Positions 1,895 to 63,195 of a DNA stretch of 64,000 bases are shown here, piece by piece. Under the pieces are notes generated by a model, which was not told the DNA's origin, searched no databases, and saw only the letters and a program-made list of their open reading frames with translations. How positions within the stretch are numbered: the first letter of the stretch is position 1; every line of letters begins with the position of its first letter. The translations under genes and the position numbers were made by a program. Source of the DNA: a phage; the sequence record PZ019085.1; one strand, given 5' to 3'.

Positions 1895-4606
1895 ATGAAA
1901 GAATTTTACTTAACGGTTGAACAGATTGGTGATTCAATTTTTGAACGTTACATCGATTCTAACGGCCGTGAACGTACTCGTGAAGTAGAATATAAACCAT
2001 CACTGTTTGCTCATTGTCCAGAAAGTCAGGCTACGAAATATTTCGATATCTACGGTAAGCCGTGTACTCGTAAGTTGTTCGCTAATATGCGTGATGCCTC
2101 CCAATGGATTAAACGCATGGAAGATATCGGACTTGAAGCACTTGGCATGGACGATTTCAAATTGGCGTATTTGTCTGACACTTATAACTATGAAATCAAA
2201 TACGACCATACAAAAATTCGTGTGGCCAACTTCGACATCGAAGTAACATCTCCTGACGGGTTCCCTGAGCCGTCACAAGCAAAACATCCGATTGATGCTA
2301 TCACCCATTATGACTCAATTGACGACAGGTTCTACGTATTTGATCTATTGAATTCTCCATATGGTAATGTGGAAGAATGGTCTATTGAAATCGCTGCTAA
2401 GCTTCAAGAACAAGGTGGTGATGAAGTTCCATCTGAAATTATCGATAAAATCATTTATATGCCATTCGATAATGAAAAAGAATTGTTGATGGAATATCTC
2501 AACTTCTGGCAACAGAAAACTCCTGTCATTTTGACTGGATGGAACGTTGAGTCATTTGATATTCCATATGTGTATAACCGAATCAAGAATATTTTTGGCG
2601 AATCTACTGCGAAACGTTTATCACCACATCGTAAAACTCGTGTTAAAGTTATCGAAAACATGTATGGTTCTCGTGAAATCATCACATTGTTTGGTATCTC
2701 TGTTCTTGATTATATTGACCTTTACAAAAAATTCTCTTTCACGAACCAACCGTCATATTCTCTGGATTACATTTCAGAATTTGAATTGAACGTTGGTAAA
2801 CTGAAATATGACGGCCCTATTTCTAAGCTTCGTGAAAGCAATCACCAACGATATATTTCTTATAACATCATCGACGTATATCGTGTATTGCAAATTGACG
2901 CTAAACGCCAGTTCATTAACTTGAGTTTGGACATGGGTTATTATGCTAAAATTCAGATTCAATCTGTGTTCAGTCCAATTAAAACTTGGGATGCTATTAT
3001 TTTTAATAGCCTTAAAGAACAAAACAAGGTGATTCCACAAGGTCGTTCTCACCCGGTTCAACCTTATCCTGGCGCTTTTGTTAAGGAACCTATTCCAAAT
3101 CGATACAAATATGTGATGAGCTTCGACCTCACATCTCTGTATCCAAGTATTATTCGCCAAGTGAATATTAGCCCAGAAACAATAGCAGGAACGTTTAAAG
3201 TAGCTCCATTGCATGATTATATTAACGCTGTTGCTGAACGTCCTTCTGATGTGTACAGTTGCTCTCCTAACGGCATGATGTATTATAAAGACCGTGATGG
3301 TGTAGTTCCAACTGAAATCACTAAAGTCTTTAATCAACGTAAAGAACATAAAGGTTATATGCTTGCAGCTCAACGTAATGGTGAAATAATTAAAGAGGCG
3401 TTGCATAATCCTAATCTTTCTGTTGATGAACCATTAGACGTTGATTATCGTTTTGACTTCACTGACGAGATTAAAGAAAAGATTAAAAAGTTGTCTGCTA
3501 AATCTCTTAATGAAATGTTGTTTAGAGCTCAACGTACTGAAGTTGCAGGTATGACTGCACAAATTAACCGTAAATTGCTTATCAACTCACTTTATGGTGC
3601 ACTTGGCAACGTTTGGTTCCGTTATTATGATTTACGTAATGCTACTGCAATCACAACATTCGGGCAAATGGCTTTACAGTGGATTGAACGTAAAGTTAAT
3701 GAATATCTGAATGAAGTTTGTGGTACAGAAGGCGAAGCTTTCGTTCTATATGGTGATACAGACTCCATTTACGTATCTGCTGATAAAATTATTGATAAGG
3801 TTGGTGAATCTAAATTCCGTGATACCAACCATTGGGTAGACTTCTTAGATAAGTTTGCACGTGAACGTATGGAACCAGCTATTGATAGAGGTTTCCGTGA
3901 AATGTGTGAATACATGAACAATAAACAACACTTAATGTTCATGGACCGAGAAGCTATCGCTGGACCTCCGCTTGGTTCTAAAGGTATTGGCGGATTTTGG
4001 ACAGGTAAGAAACGTTATGCATTAAACGTGTGGGATATGGAAGGAACCAGATACGCTGAACCTAAGCTTAAAATCATGGGTCTCGAAACACAGAAATCTT
4101 CGACCCCTAAAGCAGTACAGAAAGCTCTTAAAGAATGTATTCGTCGTATGCTTCAAGAAGGTGAAGAATCGTTACAAGAATATTTTAAAGAGTTTGAAAA
4201 AGAATTCCGTCAATTGAATTATATTAGCATCGCGTCGGTATCTTCTGCTAATAACATCGCTAAATATGATGTTGGTGGATTCCCTGGTCCTAAATGCCCG
4301 TTCCATATTCGTGGAATTCTAACGTATAACCGGGCTATCAAAGGTAATATCGATGCACCACAAGTTGTAGAAGGTGAAAAAGTATATGTTCTGCCTTTAC
4401 GTGAAGGAAACCCATTCGGTGATAAATGTATCGCATGGCCTTCTGGCACTGAAATCACAGATTTAATTAAAGACGACGTACTTCATTGGATGGACTACAC
4501 TGTTCTCCTTGAGAAGACATTTATTAAACCACTTGAAGGATTCACATCAGCAGCGAAACTCGATTACGAGAAGAAAGCATCTCTGTTCGATATGTTCGAT
4601 TTTTGA
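1895..4606 (+). CDS. 43: DNA polymerase gp43 (family B, 3'-5' exonuclease plus polymerase)
   Basis: 903 aa; exo motif FDIEV, polymerase motifs DLTSLYPSII and YGDTDS; sequence strongly resembles RB69 gp43 from memory. Confidence 0.97.
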   Translation: MKEFYLTVEQIGDSIFERYIDSNGRERTREVEYKPSLFAHCPESQATKYFDIYGKPCTRKLFANMRDASQWIKRMEDIGLEALGMDDFKLAYLSDTYNYEIKYDHTKIRVANFDIEVTSPDGFPEPSQAKHPIDAITHYDSIDDRFYVFDLLNSPYGNVEEWSIEIAAKLQEQGGDEVPSEIIDKIIYMPFDNEKELLMEYLNFWQQKTPVILTGWNVESFDIPYVYNRIKNIFGESTAKRLSPHRKTRVKVIENMYGSREIITLFGISVLDYIDLYKKFSFTNQPSYSLDYISEFELNVGKLKYDGPISKLRESNHQRYISYNIIDVYRVLQIDAKRQFINLSLDMGYYAKIQIQSVFSPIKTWDAIIFNSLKEQNKVIPQGRSHPVQPYPGAFVKEPIPNRYKYVMSFDLTSLYPSIIRQVNISPETIAGTFKVAPLHDYINAVAERPSDVYSCSPNGMMYYKDRDGVVPTEITKVFNQRKEHKGYMLAAQRNGEIIKEALHNPNLSVDEPLDVDYRFDFTDEIKEKIKKLSAKSLNEMLFRAQRTEVAGMTAQINRKLLINSLYGALGNVWFRYYDLRNATAITTFGQMALQWIERKVNEYLNEVCGTEGEAFVLYGDTDSIYVSADKIIDKVGESKFRDTNHWVDFLDKFARERMEPAIDRGFREMCEYMNNKQHLMFMDREAIAGPPLGSKGIGGFWTGKKRYALNVWDMEGTRYAEPKLKIMGLETQKSSTPKAVQKALKECIRRMLQEGEESLQEYFKEFEKEFRQLNYISIASVSSANNIAKYDVGGFPGPKCPFHIRGILTYNRAIKGNIDAPQVVEGEKVYVLPLREGNPFGDKCIAWPSGTEITDLIKDDVLHWMDYTVLLEKTFIKPLEGFTSAAKLDYEKKASLFDMFDF

Positions 4607-7149: not shown

Positions 7150-7535
7150 TGCATCGTGTAGAAAACATGCTTAATCTTTGTTTTGATGTCGACGATTGTA
7201 TAACAGAGTGGAATAACAATCGTGATTACGTGAACTTCAAGCCAGACGTCGAAATGGTGTCTGCCATTAATGCCCTGTATGATGCAGGGCATACCATAAC
7301 GCTTTACACTGCTCGTGGTATGAAGTCAGTAGGTCCTGGTCGTATAGCAATTGACATTCTCCCAAGTCTGATTCAGAACTTGGCAAACATTGGCTTGAAG
7401 TACCATAATTTGCTAACACATAAACCAGTATATGATTGGATTATCGACGACAAAGCTATGCGTCCCGACGAATTCAAAGCTCTTATGAATAAAGGCGAAT
7501 TCGAAACATTTAAATCATATAAACCGAATCTATAA
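7149..7535 (+). CDS. Small HAD-superfamily phosphatase-like protein
   Basis: Motif I FDVDDCIT near the N-terminus, motif IV IIDDK; start taken at the ATG overlapping the upstream stop (TAATG); track ORF starts at 7134. Confidence 0.5.
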   Translation: MHRVENMLNLCFDVDDCITEWNNNRDYVNFKPDVEMVSAINALYDAGHTITLYTARGMKSVGPGRIAIDILPSLIQNLANIGLKYHNLLTHKPVYDWIIDDKAMRPDEFKALMNKGEFETFKSYKPNL

Positions 7536-7589
7536 TAATTTAAGTAAGACCTGCAAAAACCATCGCATAAATTAACGCGAGATGCAAAA

Positions 7590-8750
7590 ATGAATACTTT
7601 TAAAATCGGAACGAATTTTGATTTAGCTCTTCTTGATAAAATCGTAGAGCTCAATAAAACTTATCCTAATAGCTTGATAAACGAAGTATACGGCTCTACA
7701 AGAGAAATGGCTTTTGTAGCAGCCAGACCTGATTTTAGGCTTCCTGACGTTGACAAAAAGATGTTAGAAGATTACGTTAAACGTTGTAATGAATTAGGTA
7801 TTTGCTTTAACTATACACTCAACACGATAAATCCCGGTTCAAAAAGAGAACTAGTTGAGTGGAAGAAGAAAGCTATTCAGGATTATGTTCAGTATCTTTG
7901 GTCAATAGGCGTATGGCGTATTACTATCGCTAACCCTGTTGTTATGGAAATTGTTCGTGAAGTCAATAAAGACATTGAGATTGAAGTTTCAACAATTCTA
8001 CATGTCGATGCTGTAACTCAAATCAAATACTTACATGACCAATACAATATCAAAAAGGTCTGCTGTGGAATTCATAAGAACCGTTCAGTTTCTTTCCTGA
8101 AGCGTGCAGCAGAGTTTTGCAATAAGAACAATATAATATTTGAAGTTCTTGTAAATGAGTTCTGTTCTAATGCTGGTAAAGGGTATACAACACATTGTAG
8201 CTATCGTGACTCTTGCTATATTTTCCATAGTACTGATGTTACAGCTGATGATGCTAAATCCTTAAACGGGTATCCAATGCAACACTGCATTAAAGCTCGT
8301 GATACAGACCCATTTAACTGGTTGAGAACTCGTTTTGTTCGTCCTCAAGATTTGAAACTTTATAATGATATTGGTATCACTCAATTCAAAGTTTCAGGAC
8401 GTACAGGTAGCACAGACTACATTTTGAAAGTTCTTGAAGCATACGCTTCTGAAAAGTTTGAAGGTAATTTGTTAGAACTGTGGAAGCCTTTAGAGACTAT
8501 TTTCACTCTTGAAAACGAAACTGAGTTTTCACATACAGTAAATATTGAAACCTCTTTGTTAGATGGCTTTTTAGAAAAAAGGTGGTTCAGGCATCCAGAT
8601 TTCGATTGTGCTAATGAAATCTGTGGGACGACGTGTACATATTGTGAAAGATATTATAAACGTCAGTTATCTAAAAACGGGTTAGCAGAAAACTCTATAT
8701 CTATTATTGATATAACTAACTCTGATGACGCTTTGAGGTACCCAGAATGA
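7590..8750 (+). CDS. Cys-rich enzyme, possibly peptidase-U32-family / Fe-S TIM-barrel-like; function unknown
   Basis: 386 aa; segments GICFNYTLNTIN and EIEVSTILHV resemble U32-family strands as I remember them; C-terminal Cys cluster C-x4-C-x3-C-x2-C (CANEICGTTCTYC). Confidence 0.3.
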   Translation: MNTFKIGTNFDLALLDKIVELNKTYPNSLINEVYGSTREMAFVAARPDFRLPDVDKKMLEDYVKRCNELGICFNYTLNTINPGSKRELVEWKKKAIQDYVQYLWSIGVWRITIANPVVMEIVREVNKDIEIEVSTILHVDAVTQIKYLHDQYNIKKVCCGIHKNRSVSFLKRAAEFCNKNNIIFEVLVNEFCSNAGKGYTTHCSYRDSCYIFHSTDVTADDAKSLNGYPMQHCIKARDTDPFNWLRTRFVRPQDLKLYNDIGITQFKVSGRTGSTDYILKVLEAYASEKFEGNLLELWKPLETIFTLENETEFSHTVNIETSLLDGFLEKRWFRHPDFDCANEICGTTCTYCERYYKRQLSKNGLAENSISIIDITNSDDALRYPE

Positions 8751-14283: not shown

Positions 14284-14313
14284 GTTTACATCTTCCTCTA
14301 GGCATGATATGAT
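14284..14313 (+). promoter_or_regulatory. Early sigma70-type promoter (GTTTAC, 18 bp, TATGAT)
   Basis: -35 GTTTAC at 14284-14289, -10 at 14308-14313; spacer TTCCTCT is complementary to the downstream SD AGAGGAA. Confidence 0.5.
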
Positions 14314-14342
14314 GTACTTACACCAACCAAGAGGAAAACACT

Positions 14343-14717
14343 ATGAATATGTCTCAAGCAATTTTTACTGCAATCACCGAAAACACAACTGTTGAAGTAG
14401 TTTCTCCGCTGGCAACCTACGTTATTCTTGCTCCTAAAACTATTGTATCTCGTATGGAAAACACGGGCAAACGTATTGTACAAATTGTTGGAGCTGGAAA
14501 TCAAAAACTTGATTATCTGCGAACTATCAAAGCTTACGAACATTTCCAAATCGAAAAAGGTTCTCCTATCCAGGTAGAACTCGTAAATGGTGATATCGTT
14601 CGAGCAATGTTCCATCATTTCTATGCATTGAATGACCAATCTAAAGCGGTTCGTTTAATTGCATACGACGCAAACCAAAACGAAATCAACGCAGACGTAT
14701 CTAAATTACGTTTTTAA
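14343..14717 (+). CDS. Hypothetical protein (124 aa)
   Basis: ORF with upstream SD AGAGGAA and its own promoter. Confidence 0.6.
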   Translation: MNMSQAIFTAITENTTVEVVSPLATYVILAPKTIVSRMENTGKRIVQIVGAGNQKLDYLRTIKAYEHFQIEKGSPIQVELVNGDIVRAMFHHFYALNDQSKAVRLIAYDANQNEINADVSKLRF

Positions 14718-14768
14718 GTTTACTTCTCCAGTAGTTGTGTTATTATAGACCTATCAACTACTGGAGAA
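14718..14768 (+). promoter_or_regulatory. Early promoter (GTTTAC, 17 bp, TATTAT) embedded in a 14-bp perfect inverted repeat that includes the SD
   Basis: Left arm TTCTCCAGTAGTTG 14724-14737, right arm CAACTACTGGAGAA 14755-14768; the -10 lies in the loop. Confidence 0.6.
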
Positions 14769-14772
14769 CAAA

Positions 14773-15090
14773 ATGAAAACCATCGATTGTAAAGCAGAAT
14801 TTAAGATTTTTTATCACGGTTCAAGTAGTTCAGCTAACATCGAAAACATGCTTTGTCCTCCTGAAGAAACAGGAGTTCTGTCTGAAACAGGACGTAAGAA
14901 AAACTTGGATCGTGTATTCTTTACTGAAGATATCGGTTTAGCAAAGATTTATGCAGGACGAGCAGCACGCTCTTATGGAGGTGAACCACGTCTCTATCGA
15001 GTAATTTCTCCGGTAGATGTAGTTCAAATGAATGATACTAAAGGCGCTACAGTTTATCACGCTGAATGGGCATTTTGCGAGGAAATATGA
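14773..15090 (+). CDS. Hypothetical protein (105 aa)
   Basis: ORF after the promoter/stem-loop cassette. Confidence 0.6.
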   Translation: MKTIDCKAEFKIFYHGSSSSANIENMLCPPEETGVLSETGRKKNLDRVFFTEDIGLAKIYAGRAARSYGGEPRLYRVISPVDVVQMNDTKGATVYHAEWAFCEEI

Positions 15091-21737: not shown

Positions 21738-21764
21738 TTTACATTCCCTCCTCTCGTGTTATGA
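21736..21764 (+). promoter_or_regulatory. Early promoter (GTTTAC, 17 bp, TATGAT)
   Basis: -35 at 21736-21741, -10 at 21759-21764; downstream inverted repeat GATAGAC/GTCTATC spans the SD. Confidence 0.5.
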
Positions 21765-21792
21765 TAGACTTATCTTTAAATGGAGGTCTATC

Positions 21793-22374
21793 ATGACATG
21801 TCAATCTGAACTTCAAGAACGCGAATACCTAACAAATCTGATTGATAGCAAATTCACCCGCCAAGAACAAAACATTCTCTGGGCTTGCACTGATTCTAAG
21901 GAAGACCCGGATTTCCACTATGAATTAGACCATCTTGTTCGTAAGCATATGACTTCTACAGTACCAGTAGAACTCTACCGTGGTGTAACTCCAGAAGAAA
22001 TAGAACGTCTTTCACTTCTTTCTGTTGGATGCCATTGGTCTCCTGGACGAGTAACATCGTTCACAACTGATTTCAACACAGCTCGTCAATTCTCTGGGAG
22101 TTGGGAATATCAGACGTACACTATTCTTAGTCTCAGGAATGCTCCATTCATTTTTGATTACTACCAAAACATGGTTAACATTGTACTCGCCGGAAAGAAC
22201 CCTAAGCATGTTATGGAAGAAACGCGTGTTGACGTCCTAGATATGATTGAATCTGAACAAGAGTACATGGTCTCAGGTATCTCTAGATTTGAGATTGTGG
22301 AAATTGAAGAGTTAGAGTATGACCCTTTGTCTCGAGTATACAAAATCATTCACTTAAAGATGTTGAATTTTTAG
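21793..22374 (+). CDS. ADP-ribosyltransferase, ModA/ModB family (first paralog)
   Basis: 193 aa; R-S-E-type motifs ELYRG, SFT and EQE; paralogous to the next gene; at the T4 modA/modB position. Confidence 0.6.
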   Translation: MTCQSELQEREYLTNLIDSKFTRQEQNILWACTDSKEDPDFHYELDHLVRKHMTSTVPVELYRGVTPEEIERLSLLSVGCHWSPGRVTSFTTDFNTARQFSGSWEYQTYTILSLRNAPFIFDYYQNMVNIVLAGKNPKHVMEETRVDVLDMIESEQEYMVSGISRFEIVEIEELEYDPLSRVYKIIHLKMLNF

Positions 22375-23942: not shown

Positions 23943-24254
23943 ATGGTTTATGTATATGCAATAGTTTATCGAGATATGGAAGGATTTACTATCCCGGTTC
24001 CACTTGATGAGCATCGTCCTGCAGTATTTTTTAGAAAGGATATTGCAGATAAAGTTTTCGATACTTTGAAAACACAGTATAAAACAGATTTAAAATTGGG
24101 AGCTCTAAGAATGGTCGAAACTCCGCGTAAGTTCTGGTTTAATAAGCTTGAAATGAAACACGTTAAACTAGATGCGGAGACGCAAAGATTGTATCAACGA
24201 ATCCTGGACACAGGCCGTATTGTTAGTATTCCAATTGCAGGGACTTTACGATGA
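23943..24254 (+). CDS. Hypothetical protein (103 aa), dda.1 position
   Basis: ORF; synteny. Confidence 0.55.
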   Translation: MVYVYAIVYRDMEGFTIPVPLDEHRPAVFFRKDIADKVFDTLKTQYKTDLKLGALRMVETPRKFWFNKLEMKHVKLDAETQRLYQRILDTGRIVSIPIAGTLR

Positions 24255-25564
24255 CATTTGATGATTTGACTGAAGGCCAGAAAAATGCCTTCAACGTTGT
24301 TATGGAAGCTATTAAAGAAAAGAAACATCATGTAACTATTAATGGACCTGCTGGTACAGGTAAAACAACCCTTACTAGATTCATCGTTGAAGCCCTTATT
24401 TCTTCTGGAGAATCAGGTATTATTTTAGCAGCCCCTACACATGCTGCTAAAAAGGTTCTAAGCAAACTTGCAGGTCAAGAAGCATCGACTATTCATAGCA
24501 TTCTTAAAATCAACCCAACCACATACGAAGAAAACGTATTATTTGAACAGAAAAAGGTTCCCGACTTAGCCTTGTGTCGTGTACTGTTATTTGATGAAGC
24601 GTCAATGTGCGACCGTTCTCTGTTTAAAATAATGTTAGCTAGTATCCCTAAATGGTGTACAGTAATTGGAATCGGCGACCGATGCCAGATTCGTCCGGTA
24701 GACCCAGGCGAATCAACTGCGTATCTAAGTCCTTTCTTCACTCACAAAGACTTCGTGCAATGCAACCTTACAGAAGTTAAACGTAGCAATGCACCAATTA
24801 TTGATGTTGCGACTGATATTCGTAACGGCAAATGGATTTACGATAAAGTAGTTGATGGGCACGGTGTTCATGGATATACAGACCTTAAATCGTATATGAT
24901 GAACTATTTTAACGTCGTTAAAACTCCTGAAGACCTTTTCGAAAATCGAATGATGGCATTCACAAATAAGTCGGTGGACAAGTTAAATTCAATTATTCGC
25001 CGAAAACTTCTTGAAACAGAAAAACCATTTATTAAAGACGAAGTCATTGTTCTACAAGAGCCATTTACTAAGACATATAAGCTAGACGGTAAAAATATGA
25101 CCGAAATGCTTTTCAATAATGGGCAATTCGTTCGTATTCGAGACGCCGTAGAAACGTCTACATTCGTTAAAGCACGTGGTGTTTCAGGCGAATATATGAT
25201 ACGATACTGGAATCTTACAGTAGAAACATATGGTGATGATGAAGAATATATCCGCGAAGATATAAAGGTTATTTCTTCTGAAGAAGAGCTTTATAAATTC
25301 AATTTGTTTTTGGCTAAGACCGCAGAAACATACAAATTCTGGAATAAAGGTGGTAAAGCTCCATGGAGCGAATTCTGGGATGCTAAACGTATGTTCACTA
25401 AGGTGAAGGCACTACCGGTATCAACCTTCCATAAGGCCCAGGGTATGTCTGTTGACACGGCCTTTGTTTATACACCGTGTATCCATTATGCCGATTCAGA
25501 ATTAGCTAAACAGTTATTGTATGTCGGCACAACTCGTGGTCGGTTTGACGTCCATTTTATTTGA
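24251..25564 (+). CDS. dda: Dda DNA helicase (SF1B)
   Basis: 437 aa; MTFDDLTEGQKNAFN...GPAGTGKTT colinear with T4 Dda. Confidence 0.95.
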   Translation: MTFDDLTEGQKNAFNVVMEAIKEKKHHVTINGPAGTGKTTLTRFIVEALISSGESGIILAAPTHAAKKVLSKLAGQEASTIHSILKINPTTYEENVLFEQKKVPDLALCRVLLFDEASMCDRSLFKIMLASIPKWCTVIGIGDRCQIRPVDPGESTAYLSPFFTHKDFVQCNLTEVKRSNAPIIDVATDIRNGKWIYDKVVDGHGVHGYTDLKSYMMNYFNVVKTPEDLFENRMMAFTNKSVDKLNSIIRRKLLETEKPFIKDEVIVLQEPFTKTYKLDGKNMTEMLFNNGQFVRIRDAVETSTFVKARGVSGEYMIRYWNLTVETYGDDEEYIREDIKVISSEEELYKFNLFLAKTAETYKFWNKGGKAPWSEFWDAKRMFTKVKALPVSTFHKAQGMSVDTAFVYTPCIHYADSELAKQLLYVGTTRGRFDVHFI

Positions 25565-25573
25565 GAGAAAATT

Positions 25574-26251
25574 ATGAGCACTGATGTTATTATAGATTTT
25601 GAAACATTCGGCAATACATCAAAAGCGGCTGTTATTGACCTTGCGGTTATTGCATATAATTCCGACCCTGAAGTTGTTGAATCATTTGAAGAACTTGTTC
25701 AACGTGGTAAGCGAATTAAATTTAATTTAGCTTCTCAAAAAGGGAAGCGAGTTTTCGCTAAATCCACTATGAAATGGTGGAAAGAACAATCAGCAGAAGC
25801 ACGTAAAAACTTGGCTCCGTCTGAAGACGATGTCACTACGCTTGAAGGCATAAAAATCTTTTTAGATTATTGCCGAGCTAATAAAGTTGACCAATGGAAA
25901 TCACAGATGTGGTGCCGTGGTATGAGCTTTGACTTCCCGATCTTGGTCGATTTGATTCGTGACCTCTATCGTGATGAAGGTGTTCTTGAACCAGATATTG
26001 ATACTGATAAATTAGAACCGGTTAAATTCTGGGCTCAACGCGATATTCGTACGGCAATCGAAGCTTACTCGTTGACACGAGGATTAAGTATGTGTCCATT
26101 ACCAATGGGTACACTAAAAGGATTCGTTGCCCATGATAGTATTCATGATTGTGCTAAAGATATTTTGATGTTAAAATATGCTCAGCGTTATGCGCTTGGT
26201 CTTGAAGATGTCCCTGAGAATCCTGACCCGTTAAGTGTAAAACAGCGATAA
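25574..26251 (+). CDS. dexA: Exonuclease A (DexA, DnaQ-like 3'-5' exonuclease)
   Basis: 225 aa; DFETFG exo motif; position after dda. Confidence 0.85.
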   Translation: MSTDVIIDFETFGNTSKAAVIDLAVIAYNSDPEVVESFEELVQRGKRIKFNLASQKGKRVFAKSTMKWWKEQSAEARKNLAPSEDDVTTLEGIKIFLDYCRANKVDQWKSQMWCRGMSFDFPILVDLIRDLYRDEGVLEPDIDTDKLEPVKFWAQRDIRTAIEAYSLTRGLSMCPLPMGTLKGFVAHDSIHDCAKDILMLKYAQRYALGLEDVPENPDPLSVKQR

Positions 26252-26256
26252 AATCA

Positions 26257-26286
26257 GTTTACAACCAAGGATGGTTGTGGTATAAT
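26257..26286 (+). promoter_or_regulatory. Early promoter (GTTTAC, 18 bp, TATAAT) with spacer hairpin ACAACCA-AGGA-TGGTTGT
   Basis: Consensus -35 and -10; near-duplicate of the promoter at 26815. Confidence 0.6.
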
Positions 26287-26317
26287 CTTTCTATCTTAAC
26301 TAAACAGGAAAAACATT

Positions 26318-26812
26318 ATGAATATCAATACTACGGCTACTTACATCCTGAAAGACGAAAAACAAATCAACTGGTACGGTGCTTCAGTGCGAGCTTATGA
26401 AAAGTTTTGTGAAATTTTAGGTGCCACTCAAGGTAATAGTTTCACTATTGTTAACTTCATCAAACAAGCTGAAGGTCCTTGGTTATTCTTAGAAATTAAA
26501 AATTCATACGGTACAATTTCTACTACCGCCCTTCCAAGCACCGACTTTGAACTGTTGATTGAAGAAGCACCTGTTAAAGATGGTCTCCACTTTGATATGG
26601 ACATCGCTTGTATGTACGGTACTCTGATTAAGCCTATTGAGCCTACTGATTTGTTGTGTAAAGCCGTTTCAATTCGACGTCCGTTCGCAGGTCCAGTGAG
26701 TGGATGGGTAACTGACCAGTGGATTGAAGATGGTGTTGAACTTCTGAACGTAGTTCATGCAGGTGATTTTAGTGTAGTTCCTCGTAGTGCTGTGGTTAAT
26801 ATTCTTAATTAA
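26318..26812 (+). CDS. Hypothetical protein, paralog 1 of a tandem triplet
   Basis: C-terminus GWVTDQWIEDGVELLNVVHAGDFSVVP is shared with the next two genes. Confidence 0.65.
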   Translation: MNINTTATYILKDEKQINWYGASVRAYEKFCEILGATQGNSFTIVNFIKQAEGPWLFLEIKNSYGTISTTALPSTDFELLIEEAPVKDGLHFDMDIACMYGTLIKPIEPTDLLCKAVSIRRPFAGPVSGWVTDQWIEDGVELLNVVHAGDFSVVPRSAVVNILN

Positions 26813-26814
26813 TG

Positions 26815-26844
26815 TTTTACATCCAAGGATGGATGGAGTATAAT
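26815..26844 (+). promoter_or_regulatory. Early promoter (TTTTAC, 18 bp, TATAAT), duplicate of the 26257 promoter
   Basis: Shares the CCAAGGATGG spacer core with the promoter at 26257. Confidence 0.5.
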
Positions 26845-26874
26845 GAATTCAACTTAAACAAAGAGAGAAAAAAT

Positions 26875-27330
26875 ATGATTAATATTGGTGAAATTAAACG
26901 TGTATCAACAGTGTCTCGTTCTAAAGCTGCAGGAAAGCTGGTTGAAGTAGTAGGACTTCGTACTAATGGCATGGGTCGTATTAAAGAAGTTAAAGTTCGA
27001 ATCATCCCCAGTTTTGGCGGACAAGATGCCCAGTATGCTTACGTAAGTCCTAAATTCCTGGAAACTCATGTGAGTGCTCATTTTGCTTCTACTGAACCTA
27101 ATGTACAGTTCAAATGGACCTTGTGTAAAGGTGTTGAATTCCAGACTGATAAAGAATTTGACTTCATCGATGAATACGGTTATCCAAGCAAAACTGATAT
27201 TATGTGTGGCTTCATTAGTGACCAATGGGTTGAAGATGGTGAAAAGTTATACAATATCGTATTCTTAGGTGACTTCCGAGTTGTTAAAGAATCTGAAATC
27301 ACTCGCTATGTGTCTCCTCGTAAAGCTTAA
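26875..27330 (+). CDS. Hypothetical protein, paralog 2 of the tandem triplet
   Basis: GFISDQWVEDGEKLYNIVFLGDFRVV; start trimmed to the ATG after the SD (the track ORF includes the promoter). Confidence 0.6.
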   Translation: MINIGEIKRVSTVSRSKAAGKLVEVVGLRTNGMGRIKEVKVRIIPSFGGQDAQYAYVSPKFLETHVSAHFASTEPNVQFKWTLCKGVEFQTDKEFDFIDEYGYPSKTDIMCGFISDQWVEDGEKLYNIVFLGDFRVVKESEITRYVSPRKA

Positions 27331-27339
27331 GGAATTATT

Positions 27340-27759
27340 ATGAATATTGCAAATCTCTCTATTGGTGATTATGTACACGTATCAGATGCTTCTCGCTCTA
27401 AAGTTGCTGGTAAGTTGGTCGAAGTTCTTTCTGTGAGTGATCCGGTTTTTGGACGTAACGAAGTTAAAGTTCGTGACGCTGATGGTAACATTGGTTACGT
27501 TAAAAGCCAATTCATCGAGCCAGAAGAACGCGCGTTCAAATGGAAACTGTGCAGATCGGTTTTAGTTGTAAAAGACCACGAGTTCACCATTGCTGCGGCA
27601 ACAGATGGAACACCGTGGACAACGAATCAAGTTGCTGGTTTTATTTCGGACCAATGGGTAGAAGATGGTGTTAAGCTTTATAACATCGTTTTCGCTGGAC
27701 AGTTCATAGTAGTTCCTGAGTTCCAAATCAAAAAATATTGTCCAGCATCTTTTGCATAA
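27340..27759 (+). CDS. Hypothetical protein, paralog 3 of the tandem triplet
   Basis: GFISDQWVEDGVKLYNIVFAGQFIVVP; N-terminal SRSKVAGKLVEV shared with paralog 2. Confidence 0.65.
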   Translation: MNIANLSIGDYVHVSDASRSKVAGKLVEVLSVSDPVFGRNEVKVRDADGNIGYVKSQFIEPEERAFKWKLCRSVLVVKDHEFTIAAATDGTPWTTNQVAGFISDQWVEDGVKLYNIVFAGQFIVVPEFQIKKYCPASFA

Positions 27760-27763
27760 AGTT

Positions 27764-27815
27764 GTTTACTTCTCCTCTGGTTTTGATATTATACCCATAT
27801 CAACCAGAGGAGAAT
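27764..27815 (+). promoter_or_regulatory. Early promoter (GTTTAC, 17 bp, TATTAT) inside an 11-bp perfect inverted repeat that includes the SD
   Basis: Left arm TTCTCCTCTGG 27770-27780, right arm CCAGAGGAGAA 27805-27815. Confidence 0.6.
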
Positions 27816-27818
27816 AAT

Positions 27819-28343
27819 ATGTTAGTTTACCGCGTAGAACGTAGTTTTTGTACTCAACGTGAATCATTACCAGGAATTGCTATTGAAGACGGTAAAGCCG
27901 TCAGAATTTGGGAAACCTCTTGGAATAAAGAACCTCGCTCGCCGTACGGTTGGTCGGGCACCGACAACTCTGAAGAAACATGGGAGTTCCTTGATAAGCA
28001 TGGAATACTCTCAGGTAACTTCTACCATCATGGCGACAACTATAATGTCCCTAATCGTCCTACAGTAAATGAAGACAAACTCCTTGAACAAAATATCTTA
28101 AGATACTATAGAATTGAGCACACATTTGAATTGAGTGAAGATTGGGCTCAATGGTTCTATTTTGGATTTGAAAGTGTTGACGCGGTTTATGCATGGTTTG
28201 ATGACCAGGTGGATGTTGAACTCTTGAAAGCTAAAGGATACTACATCGCTGTCTATGAAGCACCTGATTTCATCCTCGGAAGTTGTCAATTAATGTTTAG
28301 ACGTTCATTGGCAGAACAAGTTGATTTTATTTTGCTAAAATGA
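27819..28343 (+). CDS. Hypothetical protein (174 aa)
   Basis: ATG after SD GAGGAGAA; the track ORF start lies inside the promoter. Confidence 0.6.
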   Translation: MLVYRVERSFCTQRESLPGIAIEDGKAVRIWETSWNKEPRSPYGWSGTDNSEETWEFLDKHGILSGNFYHHGDNYNVPNRPTVNEDKLLEQNILRYYRIEHTFELSEDWAQWFYFGFESVDAVYAWFDDQVDVELLKAKGYYIAVYEAPDFILGSCQLMFRRSLAEQVDFILLK

Positions 28344-28400
28344 TGTACAACAACTATGGTCTATGATACTATAGACCTATCAAAACAAGAGGAGAATATT

Positions 28401-28628
28401 ATGAAACGTCAAATCATTAAAAACGTAACTACTGATTCAAACATCGATGAGTTTGAAGATGTTCTGTTTAATCCTGATTTAGTTGTTGTACAGAAAAACT
28501 GGACTGAATTTTTATGCTACACTGAAGTGGTTTACGTTTACGAAAAACTCGGCGATGAAATGCCTATCTATGGTATCTTCCGTGAAATCACTGAAAACGG
28601 TACAACTTATTGGAAGGAAACTTACTAA
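28401..28628 (+). CDS. Hypothetical protein (75 aa)
   Basis: ATG after SD AGAGGAGAA; the upstream promoter-like region (about 28345-28373) has a degenerate -35. Confidence 0.5.
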
Positions 28629-29041
28629 TGGCTAATAAATTTGAAGTTAATAAATGGTATCAGTTCATAGATAAACGTGCCCAAGAAGAGTTTATTAAAG
28701 ACCACACTGATAATGGGATTTATGCACGCCGTCTTGGCATGGAGCCATTTAAAATATTAGATGTTGACCATCTTGGACGTCCTACTAAACTTGTGACATC
28801 TACTGGCACGGTTGGGTACGCAACAGGCGGTGATATTCTTGATGAAAACTTTATCTGGCTCTCCACGAATGAAGCAGAGTTCTTTGACGAAGTTGGAAAT
28901 CCATATCAAGATTCTGAAGAGCAAGATTCTGATGAACTTGGCGAATTGTCTGAATTTCCTGCGATGACGATTACTATCGAAAATAACGACCAGGCATGGT
29001 CTTTGTATCAAATGTTGAAAGCACATTTTAAGGAACAATAA
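28628..29041 (+). CDS. Hypothetical acidic protein (137 aa)
   Basis: ATG overlapping the upstream stop (TAATG). Confidence 0.5.
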
Positions 29042-29220
29042 TGCCTTTATACGACTATAAATGTCAATCTGAAGATTGTGGTCATGAATATGAAAAAATT
29101 AAAAGGATTTCTGAACGAGAAAACGATGTTTGCCCTGAATGTCATCGTCTGTCTACTCGTCGGGTTTCTGCTCCTAAACATGTGAACGGTGGTTTTTACG
29201 ACTTACTTAAGAAGGGTTAA
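29041..29220 (+). CDS. FmdB-family zinc-ribbon protein (59 aa)
   Basis: [18 protein letters not shown] ... CPECH: two CxxC pairs and the FmdB-like N-terminal signature; missed by the ORF track. Confidence 0.55.
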   Translation: MPLYDYKCQSEDCGHEYEKIKRISERENDVCPECHRLSTRRVSAPKHVNGGFYDLLKKG

Positions 29221-29222
29221 TT

Positions 29223-29669
29223 ATGGCTTTTAATACGTCTTTTAAAGGTTTTAAAGGTTTTGAAGTTGGTAAGAAATATCGTATTATCAAAGGACAGGAA
29301 GATAATTTCTTGAGAATTCTTAATACGACCGGTAAACGTCTTAATACTAATCTGCATACTACTTTATTGTCTAAAGATTTTATTGTGGAAGAGATGATTG
29401 GTTATGGTGTTTCAGTGATTGCCGTAGAAGCCGTAGGTGATTATGGCCGAACTATTCATAGTATGCAAGGTGATATTCTGATTTATGGTGCAGAATTTAA
29501 ATTCTTTGAAGAAGTTCCGGAACCAGATACAGCTGTCGATTTCAAAAAAGGCTCTATAGAATTTGTTGATGGTTCGGTGATCGTATCAGGCGATGTGGTC
29601 ATTACAGTTAAAAGTGAACAAGGGCGTTTAGCTGCAATTGATACACTTCAGAAAATTAAATTTAAATAA
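29223..29669 (+). CDS. Hypothetical protein (148 aa)
   Basis: ORF followed by a terminator. Confidence 0.6.
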   Translation: MAFNTSFKGFKGFEVGKKYRIIKGQEDNFLRILNTTGKRLNTNLHTTLLSKDFIVEEMIGYGVSVIAVEAVGDYGRTIHSMQGDILIYGAEFKFFEEVPEPDTAVDFKKGSIEFVDGSVIVSGDVVITVKSEQGRLAAIDTLQKIKFK

Positions 29670-29688
29670 GGGCTTAGGCCCTTTTTGC
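29668..29688 (+). terminator. Intrinsic terminator (AAGGGC-UUAG-GCCCUU plus U-run)
   Basis: GC stem followed by TTTTTG. Confidence 0.6.
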
Positions 29689-29732
29689 TTTAGATTTCGG
29701 ATGATAGAATACCTTCATAACGAGGAGACAAC

Positions 29733-31550
29733 ATGATTAAAAATGAAATTAAGGTATTGTCAGATGTAGAACATATTAAGAAACGTAGTGGTATGTATAT
29801 TGGTTCTTCGGCCAAAGAAGCACATGAGCGTTTTTTGTTCGGTAAATATCAACAAGTTGAATATGTTCCTGGTCTGGTTAAATTAATCGATGAGATTATT
29901 GACAACTCGGTTGATGAAGCTATTCGTACATCATTTAAGTTTGCAAATAAAATTGATGTGCAAATTAAAAATAATCAAGTTTCGGTGGAAGATAACGGAC
30001 GTGGTATTCCTCAAGGTTTAGTTACCGACCAAACAGGTGAACAAATTCCTGGGCCTGTAGCAGCCTGGACTATTCCAAAGGCCGGTGGTAACTTTGGTGA
30101 TGACTCTGAACGCAAGACCGGTGGTATGAACGGCGTCGGGAGTAGTTTAACCAATATCTTCTCTACGTTGTTTACAGGCATTACGTCAGATGGCGAAAAT
30201 GAAATCACTGTTAACTGTTCAAATGGAATGGAAAACAAATCATGGTCTTCTAAGAAATCTAAAGGTAAAGGCACTAAAGTAATCTTCACTCCTGATTTCA
30301 CTTCATTTGAAGAGCATAATTTATCTCAAATTTATTTAGATATTACTTTAGACCGACTTCAAACATTGGCAGTCGTTTATCCTGATATCAAGTTCACATT
30401 TAATGGTAAAAAGGTTGATGGTAATTTTAAACGATTTGCTAAACAATTTGGTGAAGATAACATCATTCAAGAAAATGATAAAGTCTCTATAGCATTCACA
30501 ACATCACCAGATGGCTTCCGTCATTTAACTTATGTGAATAACATCCATACTAAAAACGGCGGTCATCATGTTGAATGTGTAATGGATGATATCTGCGAAC
30601 ATCTTTTGCCTGGTATCAAAAAGAAATATAAGGGTATTGAAGTCACTAAAGCTCGTGTTAAAGAATGCCTCACAATGTTGATGTTTATTAGAGACATGAG
30701 CAACATGCGTTTTGATTCTCAGACTAAAGAACGTTTAACGTCAACGTACGGTGATATTCGTAATCATATCCAATTAGATGCTAAGAAAATTGCTCAGGCA
30801 CTTCTTAAAAACGAAGCCTTGATTATGCCTATTGTTGAAGCAGCATTAGCTCGTAAATTGGCGGCAGAAAAGGCTGCAGAAACTAAAGCGGCTAAAAAGG
30901 CAACTAAAGCTAAGGTTCATAAGCATATTAAAGCTAACCAATGTGGTAAAGATGCAGATACGACATTGTTCTTAACAGAAGGTGATTCGGCAATTGGTTA
31001 TCTCATTGATGTTCGTGACCGTGAACTACATGGTGGATTCCCATTACGTGGTAAGGTGATGAATAGCTGGGGTATGTCATATGCTGATATGATGAAGAAC
31101 AAAGAGCTCTTTGATATCTGTGCTATCACAGGTCTTATTCTTGGTGAAAAGGCAGAGAATACGAACTATCGTAATATTGCAATTATGACCGATGCCGATC
31201 ATGACGGTCTTGGAAGTATCTATCCGGCTTTGCTTGCTTTCTTTAGTAATTGGCCTGAATTGTTTGAACAAGGACGTATTCGCTTTGTTAAAACGCCTGT
31301 AATTATTGCACAAATTGGCAAAACTCAAAAATGGTTTTATACTGTAGCTGAGTATGAAGAAGTTAAAGATACACTGCCTAAGCATAGTATTCGATACATC
31401 AAGGGATTAGGCTCCCTTGAAAAGTCAGAATATCGTGAAATGATTCAGAACCCTGTGTACGACGTAGTTAAACTTCCTGAAAATTGGAAAGAACTCTTTG
31501 AAATGTTGATGGGTGACGATTCAGAACTTCGTAAAGAATGGATGTCCTAA
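29733..31550 (+). CDS. 39: Topoisomerase II large subunit gp39 (GyrB-like ATPase), continuous 39+60-equivalent ORF
   Basis: 605 aa; GHKL ATPase motifs; one uninterrupted ORF, unlike the split T4 39/60 arrangement. Confidence 0.9.
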   Translation: MIKNEIKVLSDVEHIKKRSGMYIGSSAKEAHERFLFGKYQQVEYVPGLVKLIDEIIDNSVDEAIRTSFKFANKIDVQIKNNQVSVEDNGRGIPQGLVTDQTGEQIPGPVAAWTIPKAGGNFGDDSERKTGGMNGVGSSLTNIFSTLFTGITSDGENEITVNCSNGMENKSWSSKKSKGKGTKVIFTPDFTSFEEHNLSQIYLDITLDRLQTLAVVYPDIKFTFNGKKVDGNFKRFAKQFGEDNIIQENDKVSIAFTTSPDGFRHLTYVNNIHTKNGGHHVECVMDDICEHLLPGIKKKYKGIEVTKARVKECLTMLMFIRDMSNMRFDSQTKERLTSTYGDIRNHIQLDAKKIAQALLKNEALIMPIVEAALARKLAAEKAAETKAAKKATKAKVHKHIKANQCGKDADTTLFLTEGDSAIGYLIDVRDRELHGGFPLRGKVMNSWGMSYADMMKNKELFDICAITGLILGEKAENTNYRNIAIMTDADHDGLGSIYPALLAFFSNWPELFEQGRIRFVKTPVIIAQIGKTQKWFYTVAEYEEVKDTLPKHSIRYIKGLGSLEKSEYREMIQNPVYDVVKLPENWKELFEMLMGDDSELRKEWMS

Positions 31551-63166: not shown

Positions 63167-63195
63167 TTTACACACCACAAGGATTGTGGTACAAT
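63166..63195 (+). promoter_or_regulatory. Early promoter (GTTTAC, 18 bp, TACAAT) with spacer hairpin CCACAA-GGA-TTGTGG
   Basis: -35 at 63166-63171, -10 at 63190-63195. Confidence 0.55.

Follow-up and report, generated by a model that had tools for sequence, protein, structure and literature searches.

Three consecutive ORFs of 164, 151, and 139 aa (ORF1, ORF2, and ORF3) are encoded on the plus strand between dexA and gene 39 of the phage DNA analysed here, a stretch of 64,000 nucleotides that we call the window; their number, sizes, and placement are as the first-pass annotation had described them, and they are followed by a context gene, ORF4 (Table 1). The mechanical reading frame of ORF2 starts at 26812 and gives a protein of 172 aa; we considered the version listed in the table. 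The whole proteins were compared with the Pfam family PF17613 (motB, “modifier of transcription”), for which the curated gathering threshold is 25 bits: all three lie above it, with 36.8 bits for ORF1, 129.8 for ORF2 (E = 1e-37 along its full length), and 85.7 for ORF3 (E = 4e-24), the ORF1 match being limited to the C-terminal half of the protein (residues 88-159, E = 4e-9). The trio had been taken for an anonymous accessory family; it belongs instead to the named and partly characterised MotB/MotB.1 family (PF17613; PMC7827196). PADLOC defence-system models gave zero matches against ORF1 to ORF4. Our explanation as a whole, which we consider probable, is that the trio is the motB.1 - motB - motB' cluster of early host-takeover genes of a Mosigvirus, i.e., of an RB69/JS09-like T-even phage. 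Within it, the identity of the genes, their family, domain plan, and promoters, as well as their conservation under purifying selection, are shown here, the DNA binding and H-NS remodelling of ORF2 are carried over from experiments on T4, and the roles of ORF1 and ORF3 are speculative. The MotB family, the C-terminal domain common to MotB and MotB.1 (published in 2021; PMC7827196), and the RB69-type arrangement of three genes were already known, the count for RB69 being two motB and one motB.1 (Patterson-West et al. 2021, PMC7827196).

Table 1. Features of the dexA-39 interval discussed in the text, with positions in the window.
Feature	Position	Strand	Description
dexA	25574-26251		Upstream flank of the trio
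P(ORF1)	26258-26286	+	Predicted early sigma-70-type promoter, TTTACA-N17-TATAAT; 11/12 match
ORF1	26318-26812	+	164 aa; full-length MotB.1 homolog
ORF1 C-terminal domain	26639-26809	+	Residues 108-164; EPTDLLCKAVSIRRPF..GWVTDQWIEDGVELLNVVHAGDFSVVPRSAVVNILN; from the alignment
P(ORF2)	26816-26844	+	Predicted early sigma-70-type promoter, TTTACA-N17-TATAAT; 11/12 match
ORF2	26875-27330	+	151 aa from the ATG at 26875; T4 MotB ortholog
ORF2 C-terminal domain	27106-27327		MotB-type
ORF3 (MotB')	27340-27759	+	139 aa; second MotB paralog, RB69 ORF010c type
ORF3 C-terminal domain	27535-27756
P(ORF4) cassette	27765-27818	+	TTTACT, 16 nt, TATTAT; downstream boundary of the trio
ORF4	27819-28343	+	174 aa; T4 MotB.2 homolog, context gene
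Gene 39	from 29733		Far boundary of the dexA-39 interval

What the three proteins have in common is their C-terminal end, where G(W/F)(V/I)(T/S)DQW(I/V)EDG..L.N(V/I)V..G(D/Q)F.VV is invariant across the ORF1/ORF2/ORF3 alignment. A shared motif had been pointed out there before, and chance resemblance can be excluded because the pairwise BLASTP E-values (2e-10 for ORF1-ORF3, 3e-9 for ORF1-ORF2, and 3e-31 for ORF2-ORF3, the last with 45% identity across 145 aa) and the PF17613 scores all hold; the three are true paralogs, as had been supposed. The alignment also bears out the N-terminal segment SRSK(A/V)AGKLVEV, found in both ORF2 and ORF3. As to the fold, for which an SH3/KOW-like domain had been guessed, AF2 structure prediction returned barrels, which we take to be KOW-like in the N-terminal part of ORF2 and ORF3 and probably SH3/LSm-like in that of ORF1, with fold matches that include the KOW domains of Spt5/NusG, ribosomal proteins, Xrn1, and Ski2. 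All three proteins would end in one small beta-barrel module of about 55-74 aa, preceded by a KOW-like barrel in ORF2 and ORF3 and by a different, SH3/LSm-like barrel in ORF1. The C-terminal domain of MotB has been assigned by HHpred to the OB-fold (cold-shock/eIF5A C-terminal; Patterson-West 2021, PMC7827196). A profile of the C-terminal domain searched against 1.84 billion representative proteins gave no link to a cellular family and only about 28 true relatives, all of them small MotB-like proteins; four long matches were discarded as repeat proteins with a chance “YATEQWVEDK”-like motif.

ORF2 is the ortholog of T4 MotB (Patterson-West et al. 2018 and 2021; 49% identity, E = 2e-42), with which it shares the C-terminal domain and a KOW-like N-terminal domain with SRSKAAGKLVEV. 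Its plan is that of a basic KOW-like N-terminal domain, a short linker, and a MotB-type C-terminal domain. ORF2 and ORF3 both align with MotB proper, category 1 of Patterson-West 2021, over their full length and both domains, and S18, R19, S20, G24, V27, and E28, together with the core DxWVExG..LYN.VF.G, are invariant in a MotB alignment that includes them. In the maps of the window, T4, RB69, and Dhakavirus, MotB proper lies between dexA/motB.1 and cef; as in T4, dexA and motB.1 precede ORF2 and cef follows it, and an early promoter is predicted in front of the gene. It differs from T4 MotB in its length (151 vs. 162 aa), owing to a shorter interdomain linker, and in being much less basic (pI 7.7 vs. 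9.2), with an acidic C-terminal domain. A sequence search of the PDB with ORF2 returned nothing at E up to 1.

ORF3 has the two domains of MotB but lacks the linker between them and, in the N-terminal one, a stretch of 6 residues, and its AF2 model (pLDDT 86.6) consists of two five-stranded barrels. In RB69, it corresponds to ORF010c (the “second motB”, gene 7434-7853), which is 92% identical, has the same length of 139 aa, and likewise lies directly after motB, 9 nt downstream; we found no difference of substance between the two. Among the 779 phage records with a MotB relative of any kind, 208 contain an ORF3 ortholog of at least 80% identity. In the phylogeny, 77 of 100 bootstraps place ORF3 outside all canonical MotB (Mosigvirus, Tequatrovirus, and Dhakavirus) and a single one makes it the sister of ORF2, and the duplication is therefore old.

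ORF1 is of another kind. It is homologous to T4 MotB.1 (E = 3e-27, residues 3-136, N-terminal and C-terminal domains both aligned) and to phrog_2333 (E = 1.5e-81, full length) and aligns with intact relatives of 143-167 aa, which places it in MotB.1 (category 2 of Patterson-West 2021); its N-terminal domain differs from that of MotB proper and sets it apart from the latter. The AF2 model (pLDDT 70.6) comprises an N-terminal beta-barrel (about residues 1-85), a low-confidence linker (86-109), and the MotB.1-type C-terminal domain, which is 74-88% identical to that of the MotB.1 variants of other T-even genera, themselves carrying unrelated N-terminal domains. As ORF1 shares only its last ~55 aa with the two other proteins and has an unrelated N-terminal domain, we read it, from its sequence, as a domain-swapped relative (T4 MotB.1) and not as a copy of ORF2 or ORF3. 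Like T4 motB.1, it sits directly upstream of motB; unlike it, ORF1 contains an interdomain insertion of 20 aa, directly follows dexA, is intact at 164 aa (the T4 reference annotation is frameshifted, at 119 aa), and has its own predicted promoter, whereas T4 motB.1 lies 10 nt after motB.2 without one. The literature describes the N-terminal domain of MotB.1 as an LSm/SH3-like barrel and groups it with GoF and Frd.2 (PMC12152347, Kim 2025), the LSm-like family being defined by a bent five-stranded antiparallel N-terminal barrel related to that of GoF (Kim 2025); an ORF1-family profile had no significant similarity to the GoF-like ORF6 and ORF8 of the window, and the GoF link of this domain therefore rests on the literature. 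An Rfam search of positions 24000-31000 gave a sole match, to Y_RNA inside ORF1, which we read as chance since it is sub-threshold (26.9 vs. 38 bits).

Experimental knowledge of the family comes from T4. T4 MotB, made early in infection, coats DNA and loosens the silencing exerted by host H-NS: it binds DNA non-specifically, co-purifies with H-NS and StpA, is toxic in E. coli, and has a 2-fold effect on burst (PMC6070864); it also alters the H-NS footprint and de-represses genes of the H-NS regulon (PMC7827196). By homology, ORF2 most likely binds dsDNA tightly and without sequence specificity and remodels H-NS; its basic N-terminal half would contact the DNA, and the protein would change the seating of H-NS/StpA on it and raise burst size, as T4 MotB does. 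The net charge of the N-terminal parts is +5 for ORF2, −2 for ORF3, and −7 for ORF1, that of the C-terminal parts 0 for ORF3 and −1 for ORF1, and ORF3 is acidic overall (pI 5.7). ORF1 and ORF3 are both acidic and conserved paralogs. The C-terminal module that they have in common with MotB suggests that they share a partner or complex with it, and it is more likely, speculative as this is, that they would modulate MotB or nucleoid proteins than coat DNA independently. Deletion of T4 motB.1 leaves burst and latent period unaffected (PMC12152347), so ORF1, by analogy, may do little under laboratory conditions.

A different role for ORF1 and ORF3 has to be weighed here, namely that they act on RNA (mRNA stability or translation, like their neighbour goF) and that only ORF2 coats DNA. 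KOW, LSm, Tudor, and SH3-like barrels are frequent binders of RNA or of RNA-processing partners, and the fold matches listed above are of this sort; the neighbouring cef and goF concern tRNA and mRNA, and the overall acidity of ORF1 and ORF3 can be brought in on the same side, as can the grouping of the MotB.1 N-terminal domain with the LSm-like GoF and Frd.2 (PMC12152347). However, acidic proteins bind RNA poorly, an RNA-binding motif was not found, and T4 MotB.1 had little effect in an mRNA reporter assay (PMC12152347), although the construct was apparently the truncated 119-aa form. Taken together, we regard an action on RNA as unlikely.

Turning to transcription, a sigma-70 consensus scan of positions 24000-30000 gave P(ORF1) and P(ORF2) as its two top-scoring matches. 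The near-identical promoters with a common spacer core that the first-pass annotation had reported before ORF1 and ORF2 are indeed there: identity is 73% over 59 nt, reaching the start codons, and the 64 kb contain exactly two copies of CCAAGGATGG, one in each spacer and in the same register. The spacers are identical at 13 of 17 positions (15 of 17 in most Mosigvirus relatives), the mean for the 36 pairs among the nine window promoters of this type being 7.3 (sd 2.8); another promoter subfamily (37006, 37518, and 57138) is equally self-similar. We rejected CCAAGGATGG as a dispersed regulatory site, since it is confined to the two promoters and one-mismatch matches occur at chance frequency. 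The idea that every gene of the trio has its own promoter was right for ORF1 and ORF2 but not for ORF3, the start of which lies 9 nt past the ORF2 stop and is preceded by an AAGGA Shine-Dalgarno sequence and no promoter; ORF2 and ORF3 must therefore be co-transcribed. Host sigma-70 RNA polymerase would start at the two early promoters, giving one transcript with ORF1 and another with ORF2 and ORF3. P(ORF2) is kept in all Mosigvirus loci, and P(ORF1) is also present in Mosigvirus loci, with its loop inverted in phage AV111. A scan for MotA boxes found a weak candidate at 27084, in ORF2, and a clear one at 29686 that belongs to gene 39.

Each of the two spacers contains a quasi-palindrome, 26259-26267/26272-26280 with the loop AAGGAT in P(ORF1) and 26820-26825/26830-26835 in P(ORF2). 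The corresponding hairpins (−9.4 kcal/mol, z −1.4, and −7.6 kcal/mol, z −0.3, respectively) are not significant; since shuffled sequence gives energies no different from theirs, we do not regard them as terminators or other functional RNA structures. The P(ORF4) cassette forms a 12-bp stem in which 27770-27781 pairs with 27803-27814; the fold reaches −24.5 kcal/mol (z −5.9; none of 200 shuffled sequences was as stable), covariation of the two arms is seen across T4, Dhakavirus, and Mosigvirus, and the stem would sequester the Shine-Dalgarno sequence of ORF4 in read-through transcripts. This organisation recalls the PeSL (promoter-early stem-loop) cassettes, the promoter-terminator units known from T4-like phages (Arbiol 2010; Comeau 2014): near-identical promoter copies lie in the hyperplastic dexA-39 region, they follow TTTACW-N17-TAYWAT, the early promoter type of T4 and PST (PMC4122927), with a Shine-Dalgarno sequence and a start codon behind, and promoters are found at rearrangement junctions (the TH58 deletion and the relocated motB.2, see below). 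The published PeSLs have, however, a terminating stem-loop just upstream of the promoter, whereas P(ORF1) and P(ORF2) each have just one hairpin, which lies within the spacer and is not followed by a T-run, and the stem of P(ORF4) spans the promoter and the Shine-Dalgarno sequence.

The locus comparisons were drawn from GenBank phage records; a scan of IMG/VR gave only two Mosigvirus-type loci. The order dexA - motB.1 - motB - MotB-like - motB.2 - cef is also that of RB69 and of 9 of 10 Mosigvirus-type loci, the tenth, TH58, being without motB.2 only and having at the junction a hybrid promoter, part motB.2 and part cef. ORF4, the motB.2 homolog (E = 3e-15 with T4 MotB.2; also phrog_1106), is outside the MotB family; it lies downstream of the trio here, whereas in T4 motB.2 lies upstream of motB.1, and motB.2 with its own promoter is found at different places in T4 and Mosigvirus. 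With dN/dS values of 0.17, 0.23, and 0.14, ORF1, ORF2, and ORF3 are under purifying selection, and their dS (0.27-0.43) exceeds that of dexA and motB.2 on either side (0.07-0.10) by a factor of 3-6. The earlier description of a hypervariable region between dexA and gene 39 therefore agrees with what we see: the order differs from T4, TH58 is without motB.2, and the dS of the trio is raised.

It does not follow that the trio was locally amplified, as had also been claimed. A recent local tandem amplification, in which an ancestral unit of promoter and gene was copied three times to give a fast-evolving accessory family, would agree with the adjacency of the genes, the one domain common to all, and the resemblance of P(ORF1) and P(ORF2) and their 5' leaders. 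These promoters, moreover, have far less in common with those that precede motB.2 and motB in T4 than with one another, which fits intragenomic promoter copying or gene conversion. On the other hand, the N-terminal domain of ORF1 is unrelated, ORF2 and ORF3 are just 45% identical with ORF3 branching outside canonical MotB, ORF3 has no promoter copy, MotB.1 and MotB are also present in Tequatrovirus and Dhakavirus, and, where copy-number variation among related phages had been proposed as a check, the order of the trio was unchanged in all Mosigvirus loci examined, and the genes are under purifying selection. We hold such an amplification to be very improbable.

The motB.1 gene is not intact everywhere. 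It is disrupted in the RB69 reference, in which the “29-aa peptide” is its frameshifted tail, and in a metagenomic Tequatrovirus contig (L008) it is split; 10 of the 11 Mosigvirus-type genomes examined have intact ORFs. The frameshift of T4 motB.1 appears confined to the reference record, and the real T4 MotB.1 would have 143 aa, including the whole of the MotB-type C-terminal domain, a point that bears on published MotB.1 constructs. In some phages, there is a single motB/motB' chimera. To conclude from these disruptions, from the chimera, and from the T4 motB.1 deletion without phenotype (PMC12152347) that ORF1 and/or ORF3 are functionless duplicates being lost is hardly credible, given dN/dS of 0.14-0.17 at dS up to 0.8, Mosigvirus-type ORFs that are intact with the exception of the RB69 reference, ORF3 orthologs in over two hundred records, and a T4 frameshift restricted to one record.

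For the window, the annotation is settled as motB.1, motB, and a motB paralog, and not as hypothetical proteins or “transcriptional regulators”. The locus also provides clean examples of two events, a deletion with promoter cassettes at its ends and the unequal crossover by which two tandem paralogs collapse. The biology of phage proteins that work against H-NS and behave like nucleoid-associated proteins is of real interest. We put forward a further proposal as a long shot: the C-terminal barrel would be a docking or oligomerisation module, not the DNA-binding part, and the three paralogs a graded set. Basic MotB would then coat the DNA, and acidic MotB' and MotB.1 would cap or disassemble MotB filaments or compete for H-NS/StpA via the C-terminal domain. 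If this were true, having three copies rather than the two of T4 would let a phage tune nucleoid remodelling in a manner closed to T4.

The 26257-27759 interval holds three ORFs in succession, all on the + strand (see table); the minus-strand ORFs of the same interval are all short (at most 106 aa) and unsupported. As the first-pass annotation had proposed, the three products have a C-terminal motif in common, whose invariant core in our three-way alignment is G-x-x-x-D-Q-W-x-E-D-G-x-x-L-x-N-x-V-x-x-G-x-F-x-V-V, and ORF2 and ORF3 do share the N-terminal segment SRSK(A/V)AGKLVEV. BLASTP E values were 3e-31 for ORF2-ORF3, 2e-10 for ORF1-ORF3 and 3e-9 for ORF1-ORF2, similarities well above chance level. 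ORF2 called mechanically begins upstream, with an ATG at 26812 overlapping the ORF1 stop; we set its start at 26875, in agreement with the T4 MotB start and with position 2 of the Pfam model. The upstream in-frame ATG (TAATG) would add 21 codons to ORF2, encoded by the promoter DNA itself (26812-26874), and an extended ORF2/MotB form of 172-186 aa is annotated in many database entries. The only Rfam match in 24000-31000, to Y_RNA within the ORF1 CDS (26467-26560, +; 26.9 bits, below the gathering score of 38; E 0.036), is most likely due to chance.

Features of the dexA-39 interval and of the loci compared with it (window positions unless a locus or record is named)
Feature	Position	Strand	Remark
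dexA	25574-26251		
P(ORF1)	26258-26286	+	TTTACA-N17-TATAAT, sigma-70 match
ORF1 (motB.1 homolog)	26318-26812	+	164 aa
P(ORF2)	26816-26844	+	TTTACA-N17-TATAAT, sigma-70 match
ORF2 (MotB ortholog)	26875-27330	+	151 aa
ORF3 (MotB')	27340-27759	+	139 aa
ORF4 (motB.2 homolog)	27819-28343		
Early promoters with spacer-to-Shine-Dalgarno pairing	27765-27818; 14719-14790; 14285-14345; 21738-21800		12-13 bp stems
GoF-like paralogs	28628-29041; 29223-29669		both phrog_622
Bidirectional terminator-like hairpin	29668-29683		
MotA-box middle-promoter-like site	29686-29710	+	TGCTTTAGATTTCGGATGATAGAAT
T4 reference motB.1	L002, 4292-4651	minus	119 aa
RB69 reference motB.1	L003 (NC_004928), 3377-3873	minus	
MotB/MotB' chimeras P0027, P0029, P0031	L027, 2501-2992; L028, 2199-2690; L029, 37-528		

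All three proteins exceed the gathering score of the Pfam motB family (PF17613), over the full length for ORF2 and ORF3 and over the C-terminal half only for ORF1; in PHROGs, ORF2 and ORF3 fall into phrog_1671 (“MotB-like transcriptional regulator”) and ORF1 into phrog_2333. ORF2 (49% identity to T4 MotB, E 2e-42) is the ortholog of T4 MotB, ORF1 (E 3e-27 against T4 MotB.1) the MotB.1 homolog, and the next gene, ORF4, a MotB.2 homolog with no sequence kinship with MotB. Mosigvirus genomes, such as JS09, ZQ3 and ST0, match the window at 95-96% identity over the trio region. Patterson-West et al. (2021, PMC7827196) described MotB and MotB.1 as having a conserved C-terminal domain in common and different N-terminal domains, considered that duplication may have produced motB from motB.1 or vice versa, and credited RB69 with two motB genes, a single motB.1 and a peptide of 29 aa. 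The trio is a correct rediscovery, the named family and the arrangement both being already known.

RB69 has the gene order of the window, namely dexA, motB.1, motB, a second MotB-like gene (92% identical to ORF3), motB.2, cef and goF, and domain mapping of the fetched loci found the trio in the same order in 10 of the 10 Mosigvirus-type loci with full coverage of the interval. With ORF3 as a tblastn query, a MotB relative was found in 779 phage records; best-match identity was at least 80% in 208 of them, our definition of a true ORF3 ortholog, and below 60% in the other 571, with none in between. ORF3 is not limited to Mosigvirus, since a locus labelled Tequatrovirus (L023) carries an ortholog at 90% identity along with the T4 order. 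In T4-like phages and Dhakavirus, this order is dexA, motB.2, motB.1, motB, cef, and the motB.1 genes combine N-terminal domains of two or three kinds (143 to 251 aa) with a C-terminal domain 74-88% identical to that of ORF1. Three IMG/VR loci have one gene each, combining a KOW-like N-terminal with a MotB.1-type C-terminal domain, and this gene matches Klebsiella-phage MotB-like genes at the same identity. Among 1.84 billion representative proteins, a C-terminal-domain profile retrieved only about 28 true relatives, all of them small and MotB-like.

In a neighbour-joining tree rooted with sequences from the single-gene IMG/VR loci, ORF3 orthologs fell outside all canonical MotB in 77/100 bootstraps, a placement that faster ORF3 evolution could exaggerate, and were sister to Mosigvirus MotB in 1/100. 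This argues against a recent local amplification; the first-pass annotation was partly right, since paralogs, an SH3/KOW-like fold and a plastic region are retained from it. Nei-Gojobori dN/dS was 0.17 for ORF1, 0.23 for ORF2 and 0.14 for ORF3, and the three genes are functional. Among Mosigviruses, dS was 0.27-0.43 over the trio (26318-27759) versus 0.07 for dexA and 0.10 for motB.2, i.e., 3-6 times that of its flanks; the trio sits where divergence or exchange is locally concentrated, and its raised dS suggests that the segment was exchanged with more distant lineages. Single-gene chimeras also exist, in which canonical MotB supplies the N-terminal part and MotB' (ORF3 type) the C-terminal part; one of them (P0029) lies in a T4-order locus and was found on 5 contigs from at least three samples. 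Unequal crossover between tandem paralogs would yield such genes, and they look like a tandem pair collapsed in this way.

P(ORF1) and P(ORF2), the predicted early promoters of the first two genes, are the top two sigma-70 matches in 24000-30000. Their spacers share CCAAGGATGG in identical register, with no other exact copy anywhere in the 64 kb, and the likeness extends across the leader as far as the start codon (73% identity over 59 nt), so that the near-identity previously noticed holds. The claim that each gene has its own promoter was overstated, as ORF3 has none and starts 9 nt past the ORF2 stop, after an AAGGA Shine-Dalgarno. Spacer identity is 13/17, compared with a mean of 7.3/17 (sd 2.8) among nine promoters of the same type in the window, and a second subfamily (37006, 37518, 57138) also scores 13/17; the pair is, thus, a real promoter subfamily but not an unusual one, such subfamilies being a general feature of this genome. 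Only two positions (A..T versus T..A), which are partners in a small palindrome, distinguish the two spacers in most Mosigvirus relatives; the fold stability of the spacer hairpins of P(ORF1) and P(ORF2) was not significant. Both promoters are far closer to one another than to the T4 promoters 5' of motB.2 and motB, which favours copying or gene conversion inside the genome.

In AV111 (L026, ~377-405), the spacer of P(motB.1) is ACC-ATCCTT-GGT versus ACC-AAGGAT-GGT in P(ORF1), a palindrome loop exactly inverted on a retained stem, which is the mark left by template switching or a cruciform event. The second subfamily (16029, 37006, 37518, 57138; +), whose members are likewise nearly identical, follows TTTACA..TAGGACTATG(T/G)-TATAGT-AGTCCTATC, with a hairpin across the -10 element. 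The promoter at 63167-63195 (+), TTTACA-caCCACAAGGATTGTGG-TACAAT, has an AAGGAT-centred spacer palindrome, the third of its kind, akin in design to P(ORF1) and P(ORF2) with a stem of dissimilar sequence.

The motB.2 gene has its own promoter, whose spacer pairs with the Shine-Dalgarno region of the gene in a 12-bp stem (27770-27814; -24.5 kcal/mol, z -5.9); across T4, Dhakavirus and Mosigvirus, the arms differ in sequence and co-vary so as to keep complementarity. Transcripts begun at P(motB.2) would be without the 5' arm, leaving the ribosome site free, and read-through transcripts would mask it, as we infer by analogy with T4 genes e, soc and I-TevI, where the ribosome site is similarly hidden in read-through transcripts; the three other early promoters with such pairing (see table) would behave alike. 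This gene and its promoter lie 3' of the trio in the window and in RB69, and between dexA and motB.1 in T4 (7661-8161) and Dhakavirus; motB.2 has moved as a promoter-plus-gene unit. TH58 (L025, ~1926-1985) has no motB.2 homolog, and at its junction the 5' half of P(motB.2) runs into the 3' half of P(cef) and the P(cef) leader, as a hybrid cassette (cf. 27765-27818 and 28344-28400), which indicates a promoter-to-promoter deletion. Relocation and loss of motB.2 uphold the plasticity proposed for the dexA-39 region, and both fit the cassette shuffling of PeSL, the published promoter/stem-loop cassette of T4-like phages, although the hairpin positions differ from published PeSL anatomy. Further downstream, two GoF-like paralogs flank a 39.2-type zinc-ribbon gene, and ORF8 (GoF-like) weakly matches the MotB.1 family phrog_2333 (E 7e-4); a few small beta-barrel modules, thus, seem to underlie most of the genes in the interval. 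A MotA-box-like site, preceded by a terminator-like hairpin, lies directly upstream of gene 39.

The comparison also bears on two reference genomes. In the T4 reference (NC_000866/AF158101), motB.1 has an extra G within the conserved DQWIEDG codons (cf. window 26714-26735) and ends in ...DQWIGRWR*, with the rest of the C-terminal domain (28 aa) still encoded downstream in another frame. An intact 143-aa MotB.1, 100% identical to the repaired T4 sequence, is found in 13 other records, namely 11 of T4 (including T4T, KJ477684-6 and MT984581), RB55 and RB59; only AF158101 and NC_000866 need a two-piece gene. The MotB.1 constructs in the literature came from gene synthesis, and their protein ran at 13.8 kDa, which suggests the truncated 119-aa form. 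Compared with the window, RB69 reference motB.1 has a single T inserted at each of two places, and RB69p012, annotated as a “hypothetical protein” of 29 aa and listed as “category 3” by Patterson-West 2021 (PMC7827196), is the frameshifted motB.1 tail and no separate gene.

The SH3/KOW-like fold guessed at first reading is supported by the AlphaFold2 models. That of ORF3 (mean pLDDT 86.6) has two beta-barrels of five strands each (residues 11-60 and 73-133), in both of which a short 3-10 turn comes ahead of the last strand; that of ORF1 (mean pLDDT 70.6) has an N-terminal domain of beta strands and a helix, a low-confidence linker (86-109) and a C-terminal barrel of the same kind. HHpred on MotB had suggested a KOW-like N-terminal domain and a C-terminal OB-fold (PMC7827196); the models do not specifically support the latter. 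GoF, Frd.2 and the MotB.1 N-terminal domain have been grouped in an LSm/SH3-like fold family, and deletion of T4 motB.1 gave no phenotype (Kim et al. 2025, PMC12152347).

T4 MotB is a tight, non-specific DNA binder that co-purifies with H-NS and StpA, shows toxicity in E. coli and doubles burst size (PMC6070864); at proV, it changes the footprint of H-NS, and it relieves the repression of part of the H-NS regulon (PMC7827196). The KOW-like half is charged +5 in ORF2 and +4 in T4 MotB, and the C-terminal domain of ORF2 is acidic; the best-supported reading, by homology, is that ORF2 would act as a MotB-like nucleoid-associated protein, with the basic charge in its KOW-like half. For ORF1 and ORF3, an RNA-directed role is a reasonable alternative, given the fold class and the adjoining cef and goF genes. 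Alongside a MotB-like ORF2, ORF1 (pI 4.65) and ORF3 (pI 5.7) are unlikely to coat DNA alone, because they are without its basic character; more likely, they would use the common C-terminal barrel to reach MotB's partner or complex.
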